A stretch of DNA of 33,335 nucleotides from the NCBI GenBank assembly GCA_018304385.1, contig JAGVWJ010000001.1, positions 4,750-38,084 on the forward strand, written 5' to 3'. This DNA comes from Candidatus Micrarchaeota archaeon. Lineage in GTDB: Archaea > Micrarchaeota > Micrarchaeia > Anstonellales > Bilamarchaeaceae. Below are positions 13,701-23,767 of this stretch, one piece after another. Within the stretch, counting starts at the first letter, position 1. Every line of letters begins with the position of its first letter. The notes under the pieces were generated by a model. That model saw only the letters and a list, made by a program, of their open reading frames with translations, did no database searches and was not told the DNA's origin. The translations under genes and the position numbers were made by a program.

Positions 13701-14489
13701 ATGTCAAAATCAAAAAGAGGCACTAGTTTTCCAAGAGGAAAAAGAATTAAAGACAGATGGACTACTTTTAGGCTACTGCTAAGGAAATGCGAAATAATAA
13801 TAGAAGTTCTTGATGCGCGAGATCTGGAAGGCACTAGAGTTAGAAAAATCGAGCATTGGGCCGGACGAGAGCGGCTTATCAAAATAGCAAATAAGATTGA
13901 TCTGATTAGCGAAGAGGCATTAAATTCAATTAATAGAAATGAATACTTGCCAATATCCTCAAAATCAGACCATAAAAACAAGGAAAGGAAAAAGATCATC
14001 AATGCAATACTTGCAAAAGGAAGGGAAAGACCAAGAGTGCTAGTTGTCGGTTATCCTAATGTTGGCAAAAGTACAATAATAAACTTACTAGCAGGAAGAG
14101 AGGTTGCCAGAGCAATGCCTATTGCAGGAACTACAACAAATGTCCAGTGGATAAGGCTTCCACATGATATTTTGCTTATTGATTCGCCAGGCGTTTTTCC
14201 AGAAGATGAGCAAAGAACTGAGCTGCTTAGAAAAGGGGCAATTAATGTTGACGGGCTGAAAAATTTTGAATTCTATGCTTTAAAAGTTGCACAAAAATGC
14301 ATCAGAAGCCAGGAATTGCGTAATTGGATTGAAGAATATTTTGATATTAAATTAGAAAGCGATAAGCCAGAAGATTTAATAGAAAATATTGCAAAAAGAC
14401 GTGGGTTACTACTAAAAGGCGGTGCATACAATATAAATGAAGCATCTAAAGCCTTGCTTAGGGCGTTTTCTAAGGCCCCCAGCTTATAA
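13701..14489 (+). CDS. Circularly permuted GTPase, RbgA/YlqF family
   Basis: VLDARD, NKID (G4) preceding GYPNVGKS (G1), GTT, DSPG (G3). Confidence 0.9.
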   Translation: MSKSKRGTSFPRGKRIKDRWTTFRLLLRKCEIIIEVLDARDLEGTRVRKIEHWAGRERLIKIANKIDLISEEALNSINRNEYLPISSKSDHKNKERKKIINAILAKGRERPRVLVVGYPNVGKSTIINLLAGREVARAMPIAGTTTNVQWIRLPHDILLIDSPGVFPEDEQRTELLRKGAINVDGLKNFEFYALKVAQKCIRSQELRNWIEEYFDIKLESDKPEDLIENIAKRRGLLLKGGAYNINEASKALLRAFSKAPSL

Positions 14490-14551
14490 AGAATATTTAT
14501 AAACCTTTTCATGCATAATAATATTAGAAAAGATGTATAAACGTGTTTTAT

Positions 14552-14617
14552 ATGAGTAATAAAGCTAAAGTAAACAACAAAGTATTCTATTTCTTCAGCT
14601 TTAGCTTTTGGTATTAA
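14552..14617 (+). CDS. Putative aromatic-rich leader peptide of the aro operon (21 aa)
   Basis: ATG AGT AAT AAA GCT AAA GTA AAC AAC AAA GTA TTC TAT TTC TTC AGC TTT AGC TTT TGG TAT TAA TAG. Eight of the last 10 codons are Phe, Tyr or Trp. Confidence 0.8.
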   Translation: MSNKAKVNNKVFYFFSFSFWY

Positions 14618-14620
14618 TAG

Positions 14621-14679
14621 CCAACACCAAACTGTTTGTATTAAGTCTTAACTAGTATCTGTTTGTTGTTGGTTTTTTT
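14621..14679 (+). terminator. Putative attenuator terminator (hairpin + U7)
   Basis: CCAACACCAAAC (14621-14632) pairs with GTTTGTTGTTGG (14661-14672) at 11 of 12 positions, followed directly by T7 (14673-14679). Confidence 0.75.
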
Positions 14680-14735
14680 CTGACTATGATTAGTGTTAAC
14701 AATATAAAATTTGGAAATGAAAAAATGGTGATCAA

Positions 14736-15560
14736 ATGGGGAATATTAAAAATATAAAACTCGCTGCGCTGAATGGAAGCGGTCGTACGATTGTGCGAGT
14801 TGGAAATGTAAAAGTTGGCGAAGGGTTTACTGTAATTGCCGGACCATGCAGCGTTGAAAGTGAAGAGCAATTGCTCGAGACTGCGCGAGCAGTAAAAGCA
14901 GCAGGCGCAGACATGCTTAGAGGTGGTGCGTTTAAACCGCGAACTTCGCCATACGCGTTTCAAGGACTTGGTCTAAAAGGATTAAAACTCTTGGAAAAAG
15001 CACGAGATGAAACTGGCTTGCCAATAGTTACTGAAGTACTCGATACGCGTGATGTTAGTTGGGTATGCGAATATGCAGACGTATTGCAAATTGGTGCAAG
15101 AAACATGCAAAATTTCTCGCTTTTAAAAGAAGTAGGAAAGGCAGAAAAGCCCGTGCTGCTAAAGCGTGGAATGTATTCAACAATAGAAGAGTGGCTAAAT
15201 TGCGCTGAATACATTCTAAATGATGGAAATCCAAATGTAATTCTATGCGAGCGTGGAATAAGAACATTCGAAACATACACAAGAAACACGCTTGACTTAA
15301 GCGCTGTTCCAGTTGCAAAAGAGCTTACGCATCTTCCAGTGATTACAGATCCTTCTCACGGTACTGGAAAATTAAGCCTGATTAAGCCAATGTGTCTTGC
15401 ATCTGTTGCTTGCGGTGCAGACGGTTTAATCTTAGAGGTGCACAGAAATCCTGCAGAAGCGCTTAGCGATAAGGATCAGGCGCTTACGCCAACCCAATTC
15501 GCAGATATACTAAAGGATGTAAGGGCATTACGAAAGTTCATGGATGGTGGGCATAAATGA
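14736..15560 (+). CDS. aroF: DAHP synthase type I-beta, no regulatory domain
   Basis: [46 protein letters not shown]; SD GGTGAT upstream. Confidence 0.95.
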
Positions 15561-16576
15561 GAATAATGCAACTTGACGCTCCAAGTGGAACATGCACATT
15601 AGCAGTAGGTGAATCACTAGCTAATCTAGCTAGCTACTGTACTTCAGGAAAAACAGTAATAGTTACTGATAATAATGTTCGGAGATTACATGCTAATAAA
15701 TTCCCAAAGGCTGAAATAATTGAAATAGAACGTGGCGAGGATGCAAAGACGCTCGCTACTGTGCATCAATTATACGAAAAATTTCTTGAGCTCGAATTAG
15801 ATCGCTCTTCATTAGTAATCGCAATAGGTGGGGGCATTGTTTGTGATGTTACTGCATTTGCTGCATCTACCTATTTGCGTGGCATGCGCTTAGCGTTAGT
15901 TCCTACTACTCTATTAGCGCAAGTGGATGCAAGCGTTGGCGGGAAAAACGGAGTAAACTTCAAAGGATACAAGAATTTAATTGGCACAATAAGACAGCCA
16001 GAGCTTTGCTTGTTTGATTTTGATTTACTAAAAACATTGTCGCAGCAAGAACTGCGCAATGGATTCGCAGAAATAGTCAAATGCGGAGCAATAGCCGATG
16101 CTAATTTATTTGCTTATTTAGAACAACATCATTCAGAGGCGTTTTCGCATAAGAAAACAGCAATCGAGAAAGTAGTTTACGATTCGCTAGTTGTAAAAAC
16201 AGACATTGTTGCGAAAGATGAACGAGAAGAAAGCGGAGAACGAATGAAATTGAATTTTGGGCATACGCTTGGGCATGCTATTGAGAAAACTATTGGTTTA
16301 CCACATGGCGAGGCAATAAGCATTGGAATGGTAGCTGTTGCTAATCTATCTGTTGCAAAAGGATTACTTAGCAATAAAGATGCAGAAAGAATCGAATCAT
16401 TGCTAAAGAAAATTGGTTTACCAACTAAATTAGATTACGATAAATCAAAAGTAATCGACGCTGTTAGAAAAGATAAGAAGCGCAGGGAAGACGATATAAA
16501 TTTTGTATTGCTTGAAAAAATCGGCAAGGCAAAGATTGAGAAGATAAATATAAACGAGCTTGAGGGAATTCTATGA
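15557..16576 (+). CDS. aroB: 3-dehydroquinate synthase
   Basis: [38 protein letters not shown]. Confidence 0.96.
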
Positions 16577-17214
16577 ATGTTTGTGTCAGCATTGGAGATT
16601 GTTCAGTAGAAGAATGCATTAAGTCATTGCAAGATTTAGAGTTAGCTGAGATTAGATTAGATAAGATAAATGCAAAACTATCAACGGATGATGTTAAGAA
16701 TATATTCTCACAGAAACTAAAACTTATTGCCACCTGTCGCGCAACTAAAACACTTAATGATACTGAAAGAAAAAATCTTTTACTTTCTGCAATAGATGCA
16801 GGCGCAGCATATGTTGATATTGAAGTTGAGGCAAGCGATGCTTACAAAAATGAAATATTAAATAAAGCGAAATCTAAAGGTTGCAAGATTATTATTTCTT
16901 ACCATAATTACGAGAGTACGCCTAAAAAAGGTGAGCTTGAACAGATTGTTAATTGGTGCCTTGAGGCAGGAGATATTGCAAAAATTGCATGCAAAGTGCA
17001 ATCGCAACATGATAATGCAAGGTTGCTTAGCTTACTTGATACAGATAAAAAAATAATTGTTATTGGCATGGGTGAAAAAGGAAAAATAACAAGAATAGTT
17101 GCACCTTTGCTTGGTAGTCCATTCACTTATGCTTCACTTAAGGAAGGAAAGGAAACAGCAGAAGGTCAGATAAGCGTTGATAGATTAAAAGAATTAATGA
17201 GGTTACTAAAATGA
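16573..17214 (+). CDS. aroD: 3-dehydroquinate dehydratase type I
   Basis: AEIRLD, IATCR, YVDIE, IISYHNY, DIAKIA, MGEKGKITR, TAEGQ. Confidence 0.93.
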   Translation: MNVCVSIGDCSVEECIKSLQDLELAEIRLDKINAKLSTDDVKNIFSQKLKLIATCRATKTLNDTERKNLLLSAIDAGAAYVDIEVEASDAYKNEILNKAKSKGCKIIISYHNYESTPKKGELEQIVNWCLEAGDIAKIACKVQSQHDNARLLSLLDTDKKIIVIGMGEKGKITRIVAPLLGSPFTYASLKEGKETAEGQISVDRLKELMRLLK

Positions 17215-18494
17215 ATGCAAGTTTATACTGTGTAATCGGAGATCCAATAAGTCATTCGCTTTCTCCAGCTATGCATAATGCAGCATTTGCTAAGCTCGGT
17301 ATTAATGCAATTTACTTAGCAGTGCGAGTGCGAAAAGAAGAGCTTGGGCAAGCAATTGCACATTTGAAGATACTTAATGTTAAAGGAATTAATGTAACAA
17401 TTCCGCATAAGGTTGAAATAATTAAATACCTTGATAAATTAGATGAAACTGCAAAGGCAATTGGCGCAGTTAATACCATTGTAAATAAAAATGGAAAATT
17501 AATCGGATATAATACAGATGCAGCAGGCGCGTTAATCGCGATAAAAAAGAAAGTTAAAAATTTAAAAGGAAAAACCGCTGTTATATTAGGTGCAGGTGGC
17601 GCAGCAAGGGCAGTTTCTTTTGCACTAAATAAAGAAGGTGCAATAGTAAGAATGCTGAGTAGGCAGGAAATTGCAGAAGAACTTCCATCGCTAATACATG
17701 AAGCAAATATTCTATGTAATTGTACACCCGCAGGTATGCATGAGGGGGATAGTTTAATTCCAAAACATCTATTACGGAAAGGATTAGTTGTTTTTGATGC
17801 AGTATATAAAAAAGGTTCAACGAAACTAATCCGGGATGCAGAAGCTGCAGGTTGCGTAACAATTTCAGGAGAAGAAATGCTTGTAAACCAAGGTGCAATT
17901 GCATTTGAATTATGGGTAGGAAAAAAACCAAACGTTGGCATCATGCTTGAGGCTGTAAGCAAGAGCTTACGTTCAAAGTATTCAAAATCCAATATCTACC
18001 TCATTGGTTTTATGGGCAGTGGAAAAACAAGTGTTGGCAAGGCATTAGCTAAGAAATTGAAAATGAAATACATAGATGTAGATGAACAAATCGAGAGAAG
18101 AGCAAGAAAAACAATTGCAAGGATATTTGAAGAGGGCAGTGAGCACAAATTCCGTAAAATGGAAAAAAACGCTATCGTACTTGCAAGCAAAATAAAAAAT
18201 TCAGTTATTGCGGTTGGTGGCGGAGCAGTTTTAGATTACATTAATAGTTACAGGATGCAGCAAACAGGCAAAGTTATTTTACTAAGAGCAAGTCCTCAAA
18301 CAATTGTAAAAAGGTTGGAAGGTGAAAGTACGCGTCCGCTATTACTTGGTTTAAATAAAAAACAAAGATTAGAAAGAACAAAAAAGTTGCTTAAATTGCG
18401 CGAGCCGTTTTATGCTTTAGCGAAACAGTTCGAAGTTAGTACGAACGAGAAGAGAGTGGAGGAAATTGCAGATGAGATTAGGTGTTTACTATGA
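17211..18494 (+). CDS. aroE: Shikimate dehydrogenase - shikimate kinase fusion (AroE-AroK)
   Basis: N-part: HSLSP, NVTIPHK, GAVNT, GYNTD, LGAGGAARA. C-part from about 17990: IGFMGSGKT, EHKFR, GGGAV, RPLL. Confidence 0.92.
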   Translation: MNASLYCVIGDPISHSLSPAMHNAAFAKLGINAIYLAVRVRKEELGQAIAHLKILNVKGINVTIPHKVEIIKYLDKLDETAKAIGAVNTIVNKNGKLIGYNTDAAGALIAIKKKVKNLKGKTAVILGAGGAARAVSFALNKEGAIVRMLSRQEIAEELPSLIHEANILCNCTPAGMHEGDSLIPKHLLRKGLVVFDAVYKKGSTKLIRDAEAAGCVTISGEEMLVNQGAIAFELWVGKKPNVGIMLEAVSKSLRSKYSKSNIYLIGFMGSGKTSVGKALAKKLKMKYIDVDEQIERRARKTIARIFEEGSEHKFRKMEKNAIVLASKIKNSVIAVGGGAVLDYINSYRMQQTGKVILLRASPQTIVKRLEGESTRPLLLGLNKKQRLERTKKLLKLREPFYALAKQFEVSTNEKRVEEIADEIRCLL

Positions 18495-20857
18495 TAAAAT
18501 TTATCGTTAAAAACTCAAATATTGCAGGAACTATAGATGCAACGCCATCAAAAAGTTATACGCATCGTGCTATAATATGCGCAGCACTAGCTAGCGGAGT
18601 AAGTACAATAATTAATCCATTGATTTCAGATGATACAGAAGCAACCCTTACTGCTTGCGAAGCACTAGGTGCAGAGATTTTGGATAAGAACGAAGAACGC
18701 ATTGTAATAAAAGGTACCGGAGGCAAGTTAAAAGCAAAAAACACAACAATTAATTGTAATGAATCAGGCTCAACATTGCGCTTTTTAATTCCTTTAGCCG
18801 CTCTTGCAGATAAAGAAATTATTTTTACTGGAAAGACTGGACTTGCAACTAGGCCAATAGATGATTTACTAAATGCGCTTGCGCAGCTAGGAGTAAAAAG
18901 CACGTACGCTAGCGAAGATAAAAAACTACCAATGAAAATTTGCGGTACCGGCAGTTTAACTGGAGGAAAAATAGCCATTCGCGGAAATGTAAGCTCGCAA
19001 TTTATCTCTGGACTGCTGTTTGCATTGCCGCTTGCAATTAATGACAGCGAAATAGTAATAACAACTGAAGTTGAATCTAAAGATTACATTGAAATTACGT
19101 TAGATGTACTTAAAAAATTTGGAATAAAAGTCGAGCATTCTAGAGATTTAATTGAATTCAAAATAAAAGGCAAGCAACAATACAAATCATGCGAATATAC
19201 TGTTGAAGGAGATTATTCATCTGCAGCATTTATGCTTGTTGCAGGAGCAATTGCTGGCAATGGAGTTACTATTAATAATTTAAATAAAAATTCAAAGCAA
19301 GGAGATAAAAGAATAGTTGATTTATTGAAAGAAATGGGTGCGAAAATAAACGTAGAAGAAAATTCTGTTTCAGTTGAGCGGAGCGAGCTACGTGCTGTGC
19401 CAATAGATGCAAAAGATATTCCAGATCTCATTCCAATTCTTGCAATAGCAGCAACACAAGCTAATTTTACAACAGTAATAAAAAATGTTGGCAGGCTGCG
19501 GCTAAAGGAAAGTGATCGCTTGCAAGGTGTATTAAATATTATTACTTCGCTTCGTGGAACTGCAAAAATAGAAAACAATTCAATAGCAATTAGGGGAATC
19601 GCATCGCTAAAAGGCGCAGAAGTAGAAACACTTAATGATCATCGGTTAGTTATGGCTGCATCTGTTGCTGGTTTAGTTGCTGACGGAGAAACAATTATTC
19701 GTGATCCAACAGCAATTAAAAAATCCTATCCAAATTTTTATGATAATTTGCGGAAATTAGGTGCAGATACTATGGCAAGGTCTAATACTTTCGGTAATGC
19801 GCTTAAAATAACATTAATTGGAGAAAGCCATGGCAAGCGCATAGGAGTAATTATTGAAGGAGTGCTGAAGGACATAGAAATCTCACAGGAATTTATACAA
19901 AGCGAGGTTGATAAAAGAAGAAGTACGAGCGCTCTGACTACGCCAAGAAAGGAGAGCGACACAGTTAATATTGTTAGTGGAATAAAAGATGGAAAAACAA
20001 CAAGCGAAACGATTAGGATAGAGATAGAAAACAAAGACGTGAAATCGGAAACTTATGAGAAAACGAGAAATCTAATTCGTCCAGGCCATGCAGATTATAC
20101 AGCGCGTGAAAAATATGCTAGTGTATTTGATTACAGAGGTGGAGGATTCTTATCTGGTAGGATGACTGCTTGTTATGTAGCAGCAGGCGCTATTGCAAAA
20201 AAAATACTTGAGCGATTGGAGATCAAAGTACTTGCGCATACTGTGCAAGTTGGCAATGTAAAAGTAAAGCGCACTCTAAGTGATGAAGAGCTAGAACAAA
20301 ATCATTTATCAAATCTAGTGAGATGCGCTGATTTGGAAAAAGCAAAAGAGATGGAAATAGCAATTGAAAAAGCAAAAAGCAAAAACGATTCGCTTGGCGG
20401 AATAATTGAATGCCGCGTGCTCAACATGCCCGTAGGTGTAGGCGAACCAGTATTCTACTCACTAGAAAGCGAGCTTGCACAGGCAATGTTCTCAATTCCT
20501 GCAGTTAAAGGTGTAGAGTTTGGCGCTGGCTTTAAGGCAGCAGGAATGCGGGGAAGCGAACACAATGATCCAATAAAAATCGAAAATGGAAAACTTGTAA
20601 CGCTTACAAATAATGCTGGTGGAATCCAAGGTGGTTTAAGTAATGGTATGCCAATTGCTTTTCGCATTGCAATAAAACCAACATCAAGCATTGCAAAGGA
20701 GCAACAAACAGTTGACATAAAGAAAATGGAGGATGCAAAGATTGCAGTGTTTGGTAGGCATGATCCTTGCATTGCTATACGCGCACCACCGATTGTTGAG
20801 GCAATGGCAGCGCTAAGCATTGCGGATTTACTATTAGCTGGAAGATTTGTTAAATAA
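18491..20857 (+). CDS. aroA: EPSP synthase - chorismate synthase fusion (AroA-AroC)
   Basis: AroA: PSKSYTHR, ESGSTLR, SSQFISG, RLKESDR, DHRL, KSYP. AroC from ATG 19772: NTFG, GESHG, RPGHADY, NNAGGIQGG, RHDPC. Confidence 0.92.
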   Translation: MIKFIVKNSNIAGTIDATPSKSYTHRAIICAALASGVSTIINPLISDDTEATLTACEALGAEILDKNEERIVIKGTGGKLKAKNTTINCNESGSTLRFLIPLAALADKEIIFTGKTGLATRPIDDLLNALAQLGVKSTYASEDKKLPMKICGTGSLTGGKIAIRGNVSSQFISGLLFALPLAINDSEIVITTEVESKDYIEITLDVLKKFGIKVEHSRDLIEFKIKGKQQYKSCEYTVEGDYSSAAFMLVAGAIAGNGVTINNLNKNSKQGDKRIVDLLKEMGAKINVEENSVSVERSELRAVPIDAKDIPDLIPILAIAATQANFTTVIKNVGRLRLKESDRLQGVLNIITSLRGTAKIENNSIAIRGIASLKGAEVETLNDHRLVMAASVAGLVADGETIIRDPTAIKKSYPNFYDNLRKLGADTMARSNTFGNALKITLIGESHGKRIGVIIEGVLKDIEISQEFIQSEVDKRRSTSALTTPRKESDTVNIVSGIKDGKTTSETIRIEIENKDVKSETYEKTRNLIRPGHADYTAREKYASVFDYRGGGFLSGRMTACYVAAGAIAKKILERLEIKVLAHTVQVGNVKVKRTLSDEELEQNHLSNLVRCADLEKAKEMEIAIEKAKSKNDSLGGIIECRVLNMPVGVGEPVFYSLESELAQAMFSIPAVKGVEFGAGFKAAGMRGSEHNDPIKIENGKLVTLTNNAGGIQGGLSNGMPIAFRIAIKPTSSIAKEQQTVDIKKMEDAKIAVFGRHDPCIAIRAPPIVEAMAALSIADLLLAGRFVK

Positions 20858-20867
20858 AGGTGATAAA

Positions 20868-21926
20868 ATGGACTTAAACGAAATAAGAAAAGATATAGAT
20901 GTAATTGATTCAGAGATTATAAAGCTTTTAAATAAGCGATTCGAGCTTGCGCTAAGAACAAAAAAATTCAAATCCCAAATTCCGGATCCAATGCGCGAGC
21001 AGGTAGTGCTTGATTCAGTTAGAAGGCATTCTAGAAATTTAGTAAAGCAAGAATTTTCTGAAAAATTATATAAGGAAATAATGAATGAGGCAAAGAAATT
21101 ACAAGAGCAAAATATTAGACTAGTTGGATTCCAAGGAGAGCATGGTGCTTATGGTGAAATTGCAATTAGAGCATATGATAAGAATGCAGTTCCAGTGCCA
21201 TCTTTAGAATTTGTTGATGTTTTCGATGGTGTGAAGAGCGGACAGCTTGATCTTGGTATTGTACCAGTAGAGAATTCATTAGAAGGTGCAGTTACTGCTG
21301 TTAATGATCTGTTGGTTGAAACAGATCTTAATATTGTTGGCGAAATAAATGTGCCGGTTCATCACTGTCTATTAGCTTTGCCTGATACAGATTATAGAGA
21401 GATAAAGGTTGTTTATTCACACCCGCAAGCGCTAGCGCAATGCCGTGGCTTTATTGTAAGAAACAAGCTTGAGGCGCGGCCATATTATGATACAGCAGGT
21501 GCAGCGGCAATGCTTGCAAATGAACAACCAAAGGCAGCTGCAGCAATAGCAAGCAAGCTATGTGCAGAGCTTTATGAGCTAGAAGTATTAAAAGAGAATA
21601 TAGAAGACCACGAATCAAATAATACTAGGTTCCTAGTGCTGTCAAGAGAAAAGAGTGGCGAAAAAGGGAATAAGTGCTCTATCATCTTTTCAACACAGCA
21701 TAAGTCAGGCGCACTTTTCTCTGTTTTGAAAATATTTGCTGATGCAGGTATTAATTTAACCAGAATAGAATCACGACCAATAAGAAAAGAACCAAAGAAG
21801 TTCGCGTTCTTGTTGGATTTCCAAGGTACAGATACAGATAAGAAGATTGCAGACATGATAGAAAAGGTCAAGCAGGAAACTGTTATGTTTAAGTTTTTAG
21901 GATGTTACAAAGAGGCGTTAGTATGA
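20868..21926 (+). CDS. pheA: Chorismate mutase - prephenate dehydratase (P-protein)
   Basis: IRKDIDVID CM domain, PVENSLEG, SHPQALAQC, NNTRF, NLTRIESRP; SD AGGTGA before ATG 20868. Confidence 0.95.
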   Translation: MDLNEIRKDIDVIDSEIIKLLNKRFELALRTKKFKSQIPDPMREQVVLDSVRRHSRNLVKQEFSEKLYKEIMNEAKKLQEQNIRLVGFQGEHGAYGEIAIRAYDKNAVPVPSLEFVDVFDGVKSGQLDLGIVPVENSLEGAVTAVNDLLVETDLNIVGEINVPVHHCLLALPDTDYREIKVVYSHPQALAQCRGFIVRNKLEARPYYDTAGAAAMLANEQPKAAAAIASKLCAELYELEVLKENIEDHESNNTRFLVLSREKSGEKGNKCSIIFSTQHKSGALFSVLKIFADAGINLTRIESRPIRKEPKKFAFLLDFQGTDTDKKIADMIEKVKQETVMFKFLGCYKEALV

Positions 21927-22693
21927 GGATTTTAATATTAGGCTGCGGAAAAATGGGTTCTTGGTTTGCAAAGCAGTTGTCTAGTGATAATGAGGTTGCA
22001 GTGTACGATATTGATAAGAATAAAGCAAAGGCCATTGGTTCTGTCAAGGTTCTTTTCGATTTGCCTGAGCTTTCTTTATTTGGCCCAGAGCTAGTAATCA
22101 ACGCAGTTAGCTTGCAAAATACTGTAAAAGCATTTGAAGGCGTAGTTAGTAATCTGTCAAATTGTATAATCTCAGATATTGCTTCTATAAAGAGCGAGCT
22201 TCCAGATTTTTATAAAAGGCATGGATTTAGGTTTGTTTCCATGCATCCAATGTTTGGCCCAACATTTGCAAATATGGAGTCGCTTAAAGAAGAAAGCGTC
22301 ATAATAATTAAAGAAAGTGATGAACAAGGCAAGCAATTCTTTAAGAAATTTTATAGCTCGCTAGGATTGCGAGTATTTGAATACTCGTTTAAAGAGCATG
22401 ATGATATGATGGCATACTCGCTTACTACGCCATTTGCCGCATCTTTGGTTTTTGCAGCATGTGTTGATAAAACTGCTGTACCTGGAACAAACTTTGCAAG
22501 GCAGATGAAAAATGCAAAAGGCGTGCTCTCAGAAGATGATCATTTGTTAGCTGAGATTTTATTTAATCCTAAATCTCTTCCGCAACTAGAAAAGATAACT
22601 GCTAAGCTAGAATTTTTAAAACATATAATAAAGGCAAAGGATTATGAAGAAGCGAAAAGGTTTTTTAATAAGCTTAGAAAGAATATAGAATAA
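21923..22693 (+). CDS. tyrA: Prephenate dehydrogenase
   Basis: GCGKMG, DIASIK, HPMFGP, EHDDMMA; ATGA overlap with the pheA stop. Confidence 0.9.
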   Translation: MRILILGCGKMGSWFAKQLSSDNEVAVYDIDKNKAKAIGSVKVLFDLPELSLFGPELVINAVSLQNTVKAFEGVVSNLSNCIISDIASIKSELPDFYKRHGFRFVSMHPMFGPTFANMESLKEESVIIIKESDEQGKQFFKKFYSSLGLRVFEYSFKEHDDMMAYSLTTPFAASLVFAACVDKTAVPGTNFARQMKNAKGVLSEDDHLLAEILFNPKSLPQLEKITAKLEFLKHIIKAKDYEEAKRFFNKLRKNIE

Positions 22694-22705
22694 TTGGATG
22701 AGTTT

Positions 22706-23767
22706 ATGCTCTACGAAACATTCGAAAAGATATATGCGTTAGAAAAGCAAGGGAAAGAAATAACTAAATTAAATGTTGGCGAGCCAGATTGGAGACCACC
22801 TGCTAATGTTATTCAAGTCGTGTGCGATGCACTTAGAAAAGGAAAGGATAAATATTCAAGCAGTGCTGGCGTCTATGAATTGCGGGAAAAACTTGCAGAA
22901 TTGCACGGATGCAATGCAAAAAACATAGTAATCACCACTGGGTCCAAATGGGGCATTTATGCATTGCTGAGTTTACATATGCGTGCAGGAGATAATACAA
23001 TCGTGCTTTCGCCGCATTGGACTGCCTATGATTTGATTTGCAAACAGCTTGGCGGACAAACAAAAATAGTAGACCTAAAAATGGAAAATAAATTCGCAAT
23101 CGACTTTAACAAGCTCGAAAGCGCAATTGATTCTAATACTAAATTTATTATTTTAAACAGTCCATGCAATCCTACAAGCAAGGCATGGAGTGAGGGCGAA
23201 GAACAGGAAGTTATCAGTATTGCAAGAAAGAAAGGAATTATAGTGCTTGTTGATGACGCATATCGTGATCTTTGTTTTGATGCTAGGAAGGAAAGAAAAT
23301 TTGAAGACAACTTATTTATTGTTAATACCTTTTCAAAAACATTTGGTATGACTGGATGGCGTGTTGGTTATGTTGTTGTTCCAGAGGATATTGCAAAGAG
23401 GCTTACTTCTCTTAATAATATTACAACAACCAATGTTCCAGTGTTCTTGCAACTCGCTGCTATTAAGGCATTAGAACAAAAAACAAAGGTCGCAGCAAAG
23501 GCGCGCGTTGTTTGCAAGAAGCGAGCTGAGCTAGCATCAAACATACTAAACAAAAAACTAACCTTTTCTAAACCTGATGCAGGGTTTTATATATTTCCAA
23601 AGCTGCCAGTTGAAACAATAAATTTTGTAAATAAGCTTTTAGATAGTGGGGTTGCAGTTGTACCTGGCGCTGCATTCGGAAATTATAATCAGCATATAAG
23701 GATTTCTCTTTCTGTTGATGAGAAAAAGCTAAGGCTAGCGCTGGAGAAAATTGCAGAGTTATTATAA
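22706..23767 (+). CDS. Class I/II PLP aminotransferase, likely aromatic/aspartate
   Basis: LNVGEPD, NSPCNPT, DDAY, FSKTFGMTGWRVGY; last gene of the aro operon. TTG 22694 is an alternative start. Confidence 0.88.
   Translation: MLYETFEKIYALEKQGKEITKLNVGEPDWRPPANVIQVVCDALRKGKDKYSSSAGVYELREKLAELHGCNAKNIVITTGSKWGIYALLSLHMRAGDNTIVLSPHWTAYDLICKQLGGQTKIVDLKMENKFAIDFNKLESAIDSNTKFIILNSPCNPTSKAWSEGEEQEVISIARKKGIIVLVDDAYRDLCFDARKERKFEDNLFIVNTFSKTFGMTGWRVGYVVVPEDIAKRLTSLNNITTTNVPVFLQLAAIKALEQKTKVAAKARVVCKKRAELASNILNKKLTFSKPDAGFYIFPKLPVETINFVNKLLDSGVAVVPGAAFGNYNQHIRISLSVDEKKLRLALEKIAELL

Follow-up and report, generated by a model that had tools for sequence, protein, structure and literature searches.

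In this study, we have analysed the 246 nt that separate a GTPase gene (ending at 14489) from the ATG of aroF (14736), the first gene of an aromatic amino acid operon in a genome of Candidatus Micrarchaeota (assembly GCA_018304385.1; the window is the whole analysed stretch of 33,335 nt, to which all positions refer). A first-pass annotation had proposed that this gap holds an attenuator, in which a short leader open reading frame (ORF) rich in aromatic codons and three mutually exclusive RNA helices, termed 1:2, 2:3 and 3:4, would choose between termination and read-through. Our comparison with related loci gives strong support to the idea in its broad form, that of a leader ORF and two helices (1:2 and 3:4) tied to aroF, whereas the three-helix switch as specified is not supported at this locus. 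Based on these results, we propose that the element may be a ribosome-read leader-peptide regulator of the operon, which leads from the shikimate pathway to Phe and Tyr, with hairpin 3:4 as its OFF element; we give this proposal about half of our confidence.

A leader ORF and two helices conserved with aroF

Eight of the 21 leader codons are aromatic and the operon makes Phe and Tyr, the enrichment in cognate codons that is a hallmark of attenuators. In the frame opened by the ATG at 14552, codon 20 is TGG and codon 21 is TAT, and the TAA stop codon lies at 14615-17. The content of the operon fits the amino acids of its leader, and we count it in favour of leader-peptide control. In this AT-rich genome, chance yields many small aromatic-rich ORFs (41 with at least 7 aromatic residues in a window of 10), and a genome-wide scan for other amino-acid-rich leader ORFs, made without gene calls, was too noisy for use.

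We compared aroF orthologues from the same order but from different genera and families, and 10 of these 11 relatives have an aromatic-rich small ORF 5' of aroF. A scan with one genome per species added about 30 Micrarchaeota loci, and in all around 40 Micrarchaeota loci from several families have such an ORF with an FFSF(S/G)Y core. The order within the gap studied here is TATA-like box, small ORF, hairpin, T7, conserved box and Shine-Dalgarno (SD) sequence; the common design of the family reads, from 5' to 3', TATA box, GTGGTTYRA, ATG, GCTAAAG or GCTGAAG (segment 1), segment 2, hairpin, box, SD and aroF, with the leader stop codon at or inside the 5' arm of the hairpin across loci. Segment 2 has the near-invariant family form TTCAGCTTTAGCTAT, which encodes FSFSY, and the family hairpin is of the type GGAAAACCRC...GYGGTTTTCC. 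The Ser codons of segment 2 are always AGC and its synonymous sites are conserved; the invariant AGC codons indicate a constraint at the level of the RNA.

RNAalifold run on MAFFT alignments returned the core of 3:4 only, or nothing. Because helix 1:2 occurs in two registers, GCTAAAG pairing with CTTTAGC or GCTGAAG with CTTCAGC, and loop lengths differ, we counted the named structures in these alignments instead, with the partner strand slid along the sequence, and 500 shuffles, as controls. For 1:2, 79.7% of the cells are paired, against at most 54.7% when slid, and 17 cells show double changes where 6.9 are expected; for 3:4, the figures are 81.9% against at most 52.9%, and 51 double-change cells against 20. 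None of the 500 shuffles reached the observed value for either helix. Compensatory changes occur at 11 of the 15 pairs of 3:4, and a homologous hairpin is present in all 39 loci. Furthermore, in a cross-locus duplex test, in which each arm was paired with the partner from its own locus, from other loci or from shuffles, helix 1:2 gave -15.9, -12.5 and -9.8 kcal/mol, respectively, and helix 3:4 gave -19.9, -9.7 and -7.8. Helix 2:3, at -6.7, -6.7 and -6.3, has no family-wide signal. Covariation among homologs had been named in the annotation as a check on all three helices; it is strong for 1:2 and 3:4, and 2:3 is not conserved across the family. The same test gave little for a pairing of the GTGGTT motif with the 5' arm of the hairpin (own -7.6, across loci -6.8, shuffles -5.8 kcal/mol), which we did not adopt; a few suggestive compensations can be seen there by eye.

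Of 151 genomes of the order, 31 have a match to a covariance model built from segment 2 and the hairpin (R1), each a single one, and 27 of the 30 matches examined lie directly 5' of aroF; this genome has one copy. The genes on the 5' side vary between loci, which ties the element to aroF rather than to the gene before it. No match to a leader family of Rfam (Phe_leader, Trp_leader and others) reached the gathering score, and none had E ≤10 in 14400-14800. A further R1 match (L127, G110:C63) precedes a gene only 38% identical to this aroF, perhaps a diverged DAHP-synthase-like paralogue with the same leader (DAHP, 3-deoxy-D-arabino-heptulosonate 7-phosphate), and near three weaker ones (L126, L134, L135) the retrieved DNA contains no aroF match. 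Two loci, L030 (= L004, ~2095-2490) and L028 (= L003, ~2290-2490), carry, inserted between attenuator and aroF, 230-410 nt of short perfect inverted repeats such as CAATTGACGCG..CGCGTCAATG and ACATTGTCCGG..CCGGACAATCG that resemble clustered small palindromic elements.

The helices at this locus

All of the pairings described in the annotation are present in the DNA, at the coordinates given there. AAAGCTAAAG (14561-70) is the perfect complement of CTTTAGCTTT (14599-608), and T14571/A14598 extends this helix 1:2 to 11 bp. TTTGGTATT (14607-15) pairs with AACACCAAA (14623-31) at eight of nine positions to give 2:3, and CCAACACCAAAC (14621-32) with GTTTGTTGTTGG (14661-72) at 11 of 12 to give 3:4, followed by T7 at 14673-79. 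The additional complement between AACAACAAA (14573-81) and TTTGTTGTT (14662-70) is likewise perfect. We rejected it as a functional helix: it is covered by a ribosome on Phe12-Phe15, and the region of segment 1 set against the 3' arm gives no family-wide signal (-10.2, -9.4 and -9.2).

As hairpins, 1:2, 3:4 and the best form of 2:3 have energies of -10.2, -14.6 and -3.5 kcal/mol. The support from this single sequence is weak, with z = -1.13 for a 151-nt fold, and 2.2% of dinucleotide shuffles contain a perfect 10-bp helix. The annotation had also held that overlapping segments make the helices compete. This is so for 2:3 and 3:4, but hardly for 1:2 and 2:3, which have only 14607-08 in common, and a single base when 2:3 takes its best-energy register. 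With one or two shared nucleotides, and -3.5 against -14.6 kcal/mol for the two downstream helices, a three-way exclusive switch does not stand; a stable 2:3 that is incompatible with the terminator and is in turn prevented by 1:2, as in trpL, pheL and aroR, is missing at this locus. Among the loci, the layout here nevertheless looks nearest to the classical one, having U7 past the stem and the Trp-codon UUGGU paired with GCCAA, with a marginal antiterminator.

Ribosome position, termination and the proposed mechanism

We placed a ribosome on each leader codon, took the base 13 nt beyond the A site as the first free one, and computed the probability P that hairpin 3:4 forms. At this locus P is ~1.0 from Phe12 to Phe19, 0.8 at Trp20, 0.2 at Tyr21 and 0.38 at the stop codon. 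Over 39 loci, the median falls from 0.92 with the ribosome on the first aromatic codon to 0.09 on the last, and to 0.00 on the stop codon, where P is below 0.5 in 35 of the 39. The claim that a stall at Trp20/Tyr21 masks the 5' arm of the terminator is thus borne out, with the lesser effect at Trp20. The claim that stalling at early codons frees an antiterminator is not supported, the hairpin staying intact from Phe12 to Phe19, and in this ribosome-masked folding, which the annotation had suggested as a check, 2:3 is never competitive at equilibrium. In most loci, the hairpin is blocked only by a ribosome on the last aromatic codons or on the stop codon. No RNA antiterminator competes at equilibrium; what the loci share is geometric, the 5' arm beginning between -21 and +13 nt from the leader stop codon in 39 of 39, so that the upstream ORF ends within ribosome reach of the arm or inside it, in the manner of pyrBI and pyrE.

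When the RNA was folded before the 3' arm exists and compared with shuffles, a 2:3-type fold stood clearly above them only in L011 (z = -4.9) and L012 (z = -3.7), and less strongly in L026 and L069; we count these four as having a stable 2:3 antiterminator of the classical kind. The strength of 2:3 grows with the distance of the 5' arm from the stop codon (rho = -0.40, p = 0.011), loci with an arm out of the ribosome's reach having strong RNA antiterminators instead, which suggests two interchangeable ways of blocking the hairpin, by an RNA antiterminator or by the ribosome itself.

Between leader and first gene, this locus has a 12-pair stem followed by U7. No other of the 39 loci has so long a run, the remaining 38 having U3-5. 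The U7 aligns with a near-invariant GG-UUUU of the relatives, which we count for termination, and oligo-U is the ordinary terminator signal of this genome, as the annotation had supposed: T5 or longer occurs in 39% of regions downstream of genes against 19% inside genes, and T6 or longer in the first 20 nt past long ORFs in 17% against 5%. Termination at U7 is a prediction from the DNA, as are the promoter function of the TATA-like box, which lies ~48-60 nt 5' of the leader ATG in most related loci, and the translation of the leader.

Based on these data, the mechanism that we propose would start with transcription from the TATA box, ~50 nt 5' of an ORF of 21 codons whose 3' half is almost entirely Phe, Tyr and Trp codons. 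Hairpin 3:4 (14620-14673), abutting the leader stop codon and followed here by U7, would be the OFF element. With an ample supply of charged aromatic tRNAs, the ribosome would finish the leader and leave, the hairpin would form, and most transcripts would end at the U tract before aroF. When they are scarce, the ribosome would dwell on Trp20/Tyr21 and cover the 5' arm, so that no hairpin forms and RNA polymerase (RNAP) reads into aroF. The weak 2:3 helix would contribute little at this locus, and 1:2, which joins codons 4-7 to codons 16-19, probably holds segment 2 engaged, or else times or limits the translation of the leader. The direction of the switch and its kinetics we infer.

Several observations weigh against this proposal. 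The GUGGUU before the leader can pair with the 16S rRNA 3' end through G-U pairs, but it is a weak SD-like motif and pairs poorly here. The longest U run of the relatives lies mostly inside the 3' arm, without a U tract past the stem, so termination of the bacterial style is doubtful for the family. The ordinary terminators of this genome show no excess of upstream RNA structure, which is the hairpin-less archaeal pattern; archaeal termination is reported to use U tracts, often two in a row, to do without hairpins and to be assisted by aCPSF1 (PMC7515710). The 2:3 helix is no better than in shuffled sequence at this locus (z = -0.7) and, at -3.5 kcal/mol, never outcompetes 3:4 at equilibrium. 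Stalling at the six earlier aromatic codons (Phe12-Phe19) leaves the hairpin intact and would have the wrong regulatory sign unless 2:3 acts kinetically. Finally, a ribosome terminating normally at UAA also covers the 5' arm. Because of this (P = 0.38 here; median 0.00), the idea in the annotation that completed translation allows termination needs a kinetic assumption, and the ON and OFF states would differ by an assumed dwell time alone.

The locus and its other features

The coordinates of the features are collected in Table 1.

Table 1. Features of the aroF leader region and operon (window numbering).
Feature	Position	Strand	Description and basis
TATA-like box TTTATAAA, putative leader promoter	14496..14503	+	sequence; similar box in relatives
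5' untranslated region motif GTGTTTTAT	14543..14551	+	homologous to GTGGTTYRA directly 5' of the leader ATG; alignments A1/A2
Leader ORF	14552..14617	+	MSNKAKVNNKVFYFFSFSFWY*, 21 codons; 8 of the final 10 sense codons Phe/Tyr/Trp
Segment 1, 5' strand of helix 1:2	14561..14571	+	codons 4-7; folding, covariation, cross-locus test
Segment 2, 3' strand of helix 1:2	14598..14608	+	codons 16-19, FSFSF; most conserved stretch of the element, TTCAGCTTTAGCT
Claimed antiterminator 2:3	14607..14631	+	14607-15 with 14623-31; best-energy register 14608-12 with 14620-24
Hairpin 3:4	14620..14673	+	begins 5 nt past the first base of the leader stop codon; -14.6 kcal/mol
U7 tract	14673..14679	+	adjoins the stem directly
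Conserved box CTGAC..TTAGTG..AATATAAAA	14680..14709	+	alignments A1/A2
Second small ORF	14686..14757	+	starts 12 nt past the hairpin; overlaps aroF SD and ATG out of frame
aroF ribosome-binding site (RBS)	14727..14738	+	GGTGATC 14727-33 matches 16S 3' end perfectly; ATG 14736
aro operon	14736..23767	+	8 genes; Pfam matches

The window is archaeal: a full archaeal small-subunit (16S) rRNA gene lies on the same contig (23882-25639, minus strand), and the related loci are titled Micrarchaeota. The gene spans 1758 nt against a model of 1478 positions, so that insertions are present. The 16S 3' end of this genome is GAUCACCUCC, to which the GGTGATC before aroF is complementary. This strong SD is kept in relatives, and aroF is therefore read from a leadered mRNA.

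By Pfam, the operon consists of aroF (DAHP synthase), aroB, aroD, an aroE-aroK fusion, an aroA-aroC fusion, pheA (CM-PDT-ACT), tyrA and an aminotransferase. It covers the complete path from DAHP to Phe and Tyr, in a pathway of bacterial type, and its gene borders abut or overlap, with overlaps of 4 nt. The two fusions, of 427 aa (aroE-aroK) and 791 aa (aroA-aroC), lie within 17211-20857. The DAHP synthase is a bare catalytic domain of 274 aa; because it lacks a regulatory domain, its feedback control may rest on gene expression.

The box that follows the hairpin has the family form YTGAC..YTAGWG..ATTGATATAAAAA, and the cross-locus duplex test found no conserved pairing partner for it. In many loci it reads as a short frame, M/L-T-x-R/S-G/V-I-D/N-I-K..., represented here by the ORF 14686-14757. 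In-frame stops interrupt it in several loci, because of which the box may be conserved as nucleotides and not as a peptide. It stands ~14 to 36 nt from the aroF ATG, depending on the locus; given this variable spacing and the strong aroF SD that is kept, we rejected the possibility of a second promoter in the A-rich box.

Bacterial relatives and known attenuators

The aroF genes of Leptospirales, Syntrophorhabdaceae, Desulfobacterales and of Bacteroidota/Chlorobi metagenome-assembled genomes are 72-78% identical to this one, and several of them, from Leptospirales, Syntrophorhabdaceae and Bacteroidota/Chlorobi, have canonical attenuators with a sigma-70 promoter, a Tyr/Phe/Trp-rich leader ORF and a GC hairpin followed by U7-8 (L073, L085, L086, L093, L080, L067, L068, L052, L054). 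These share with the archaeal element the downstream gene family and an aromatic leader ORF at the same position; the leader of Leptospirales contains an SFGFGFF motif. In the bacterial versions, the GC-rich hairpin lies ~40-50 nt past the leader stop codon, whereas the archaeal ones show a TATA box, an AU-rich hairpin set directly against the stop codon and, mostly, an internal U tract. Because bacterial aroF genes of such identity carry textbook attenuators, the operon and a leader-type control appear to have crossed domains. A quick aroF tree, in which bacterial sequences nest among archaeal ones, is poorly resolved and gives no direction for the transfer.

In pheL-pheA, pheM-pheST and trpL of Escherichia coli, a leader ORF rich in cognate codons has helix 1:2 inside or over it and is followed by 3:4 and a U tract (summarised in PMC11802643). 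The element described here resembles them in its cognate-codon leader, its 1:2 helix and its 3:4 with a U tract. In classical attenuators, 2:3 is stable (around -10 kcal/mol) and reuses the bases of 1:2, and the stop codon lies well 5' of the terminator; here, in contrast, 2:3 has -3.5 kcal/mol and 1-2 nt in common with 1:2, and the terminator adjoins the stop codon. This last geometry is that of E. coli pyrBI and pyrE, where the upstream ORF ends in or at the terminator hairpin, the translating ribosome blocks the hairpin and no antiterminator is needed. These two systems sense the speed of RNAP (through UTP) and not tRNA charging, and their logic applied naively would have the wrong sign for a biosynthetic operon. 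In cat, cmlA and ermC, a leader ribosome stalled over the 5' arm frees a 3' arm that contains the start region, and the RBS of the main gene itself is exposed. Mycobacterial attenuators with poly-Cys short ORFs are described in bioRxiv 10.1101/834739 as being of the same stalled-ribosome, translation-attenuation type. The element shares with cat, cmlA, ermC and these poly-Cys attenuators a leader ribosome that overlaps the 5' arm of a single hairpin, but here only the second small ORF could be gated, and the aroF RBS looks constitutively open.

By gene context, the closest system is aroR-aroF of Corynebacterium glutamicum, a short leader with Phe/Tyr codons before an operon that begins with DAHP synthase; according to PMC11802643, which summarises Neshat et al. 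2014, its expression rises when ribosomes stall at the leader Phe/Tyr codons. It is bacterial, has an intrinsic terminator and is unrelated in sequence, whereas the element here has an archaeal host, eight aromatic codons and a stop codon that abuts the hairpin. A literature search for an archaeal leader-peptide attenuator found none. We tentatively hold, with slightly less than half of our confidence, that this is a working ribosome-mediated attenuator in Archaea that senses charged Phe, Tyr and Trp tRNAs, switches the 8-gene operon and is conserved in several families of Micrarchaeota, kin to bacterial ones that moved between domains along with the operon and rebuilt for archaeal machinery. 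The rebuilding would have consisted of a TATA promoter and of a hairpin placed directly at the stop codon, which would make the ribosome the antiterminator.

Alternative explanations

The most probable alternative, which we nevertheless consider unlikely, also makes the leader a sensor of tRNAs but has 3:4 hide the start of the second small ORF. The state of the hairpin would then alter aroF translation by coupling or occlusion, and the effect would spread by overlapping gene borders and polarity. Of the 39 loci, 30 have an ATG between -8 and +16 nt from the hairpin 3' end, where ~54% are expected, an enrichment that is modest in loci related to one another. The 3' arm in many loci reads GGTGGTTTTCCTG-ATG, an SD-like motif 7 nt 5' of the ATG; the ATG here, by contrast, stands 12 nt past the stem without a good SD, although in the minimum-energy fold the stem is extended and pairs its A (14686). 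The second ORFs end 15-31 nt before the aroF start, at it (ATGA) or inside it, and the family that diverges most (L011 and L012) shares this placement. Their frame and peptide are nevertheless only partly conserved, with in-frame stops in L033, L038, L046 and L061. The 4-nt overlaps within the operon, and the lack of a U tract past the stem in most relatives, would suit such gating. More difficult to accommodate is aroF itself, whose own strong SD lies unpaired in A-rich surroundings: neither segment 1, segment 2, the 3' arm nor the box gave any signal of pairing with its RBS across loci, and in place of the sequestered SD or start of cat and ermC we find only a second ORF that starts at the hairpin base. 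The sign required, with the second ORF activating or repressing, also differs between architectures.

A second alternative inverts the logic of the hairpin, which would protect the transcript by sequestering U-rich signals from machinery of the aCPSF1/FttA type. A ribosome at the stop codon would open it, so that plenty means termination, and an upstream stall would keep it closed, so that starvation means read-through. This gives the right sign for the majority of aromatic codons, which lie 5' of the 5' arm, and no antiterminator is needed. It also agrees with the U4-5 tract that most relatives have within the 3' arm, paired to an A tract, with a second U/C-rich tract in the loop, and with archaeal terminators as hairpin-less U tracts on which aCPSF1 acts (PMC7515710). 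But the U7 here is exposed outside the stem, and L011, L012 and L069 have clear bacterial-type 2:3/3:4 alternatives that fit the classical sign. We regard it as improbable.

It is about equally improbable, in our view, that leader and hairpin are a relic which came with the aro operon from bacteria and has no function under archaeal transcription. The identity of aroF to bacterial genes with canonical attenuators (72-78%), the nesting of bacterial sequences in the poorly resolved tree and the bacterial type of the pathway would all agree with such an origin. Nevertheless, several families of the order retain the element, although aroF diverges among them by up to 50%, with compensatory changes in both helices, AGC Ser codons conserved at synonymous sites, a TATA box in place of the bacterial promoter and a conserved geometry of stop codon and hairpin. 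The relic is disfavoured because conservation of this kind is not expected of neutral sequence. Least credible of all is a functional hydrophobic micro-protein, or a chance ORF with hairpin and U7 serving as terminator of the upstream GTPase gene: the 41 small aromatic-rich ORFs of the genome and the non-significant single-sequence fold would allow it, but ORF and hairpin travel with aroF regardless of the upstream gene, the TATA box stands between the GTPase stop codon and the element, conservation extends beyond the peptide to nucleotides and structure, and the ordinary terminators of this genome are hairpin-less.

Conclusions

Gene control in archaea is thought to act almost wholly at promoter recruitment. 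According to a 2021 study (PMC8448881), no mechanism of transcription attenuation or antitermination is known in archaea. If our proposal is true, the aroF leader would be a first example of such control in this domain, and it would provide direct functional evidence that transcription-translation coupling serves as a sensor in DPANN archaea. It would make testable whether the coupling of archaeal ribosome and RNAP is tight enough to regulate, whether a hairpin can modulate archaeal termination, and whether a cis-regulatory mechanism can cross domains along with its operon. The family offers natural variants for this purpose, loci with an RNA antiterminator and loci with ribosome occlusion only. 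It would also mean that DPANN archaea with small genomes regulate, and do not merely possess, an expensive biosynthetic pathway.

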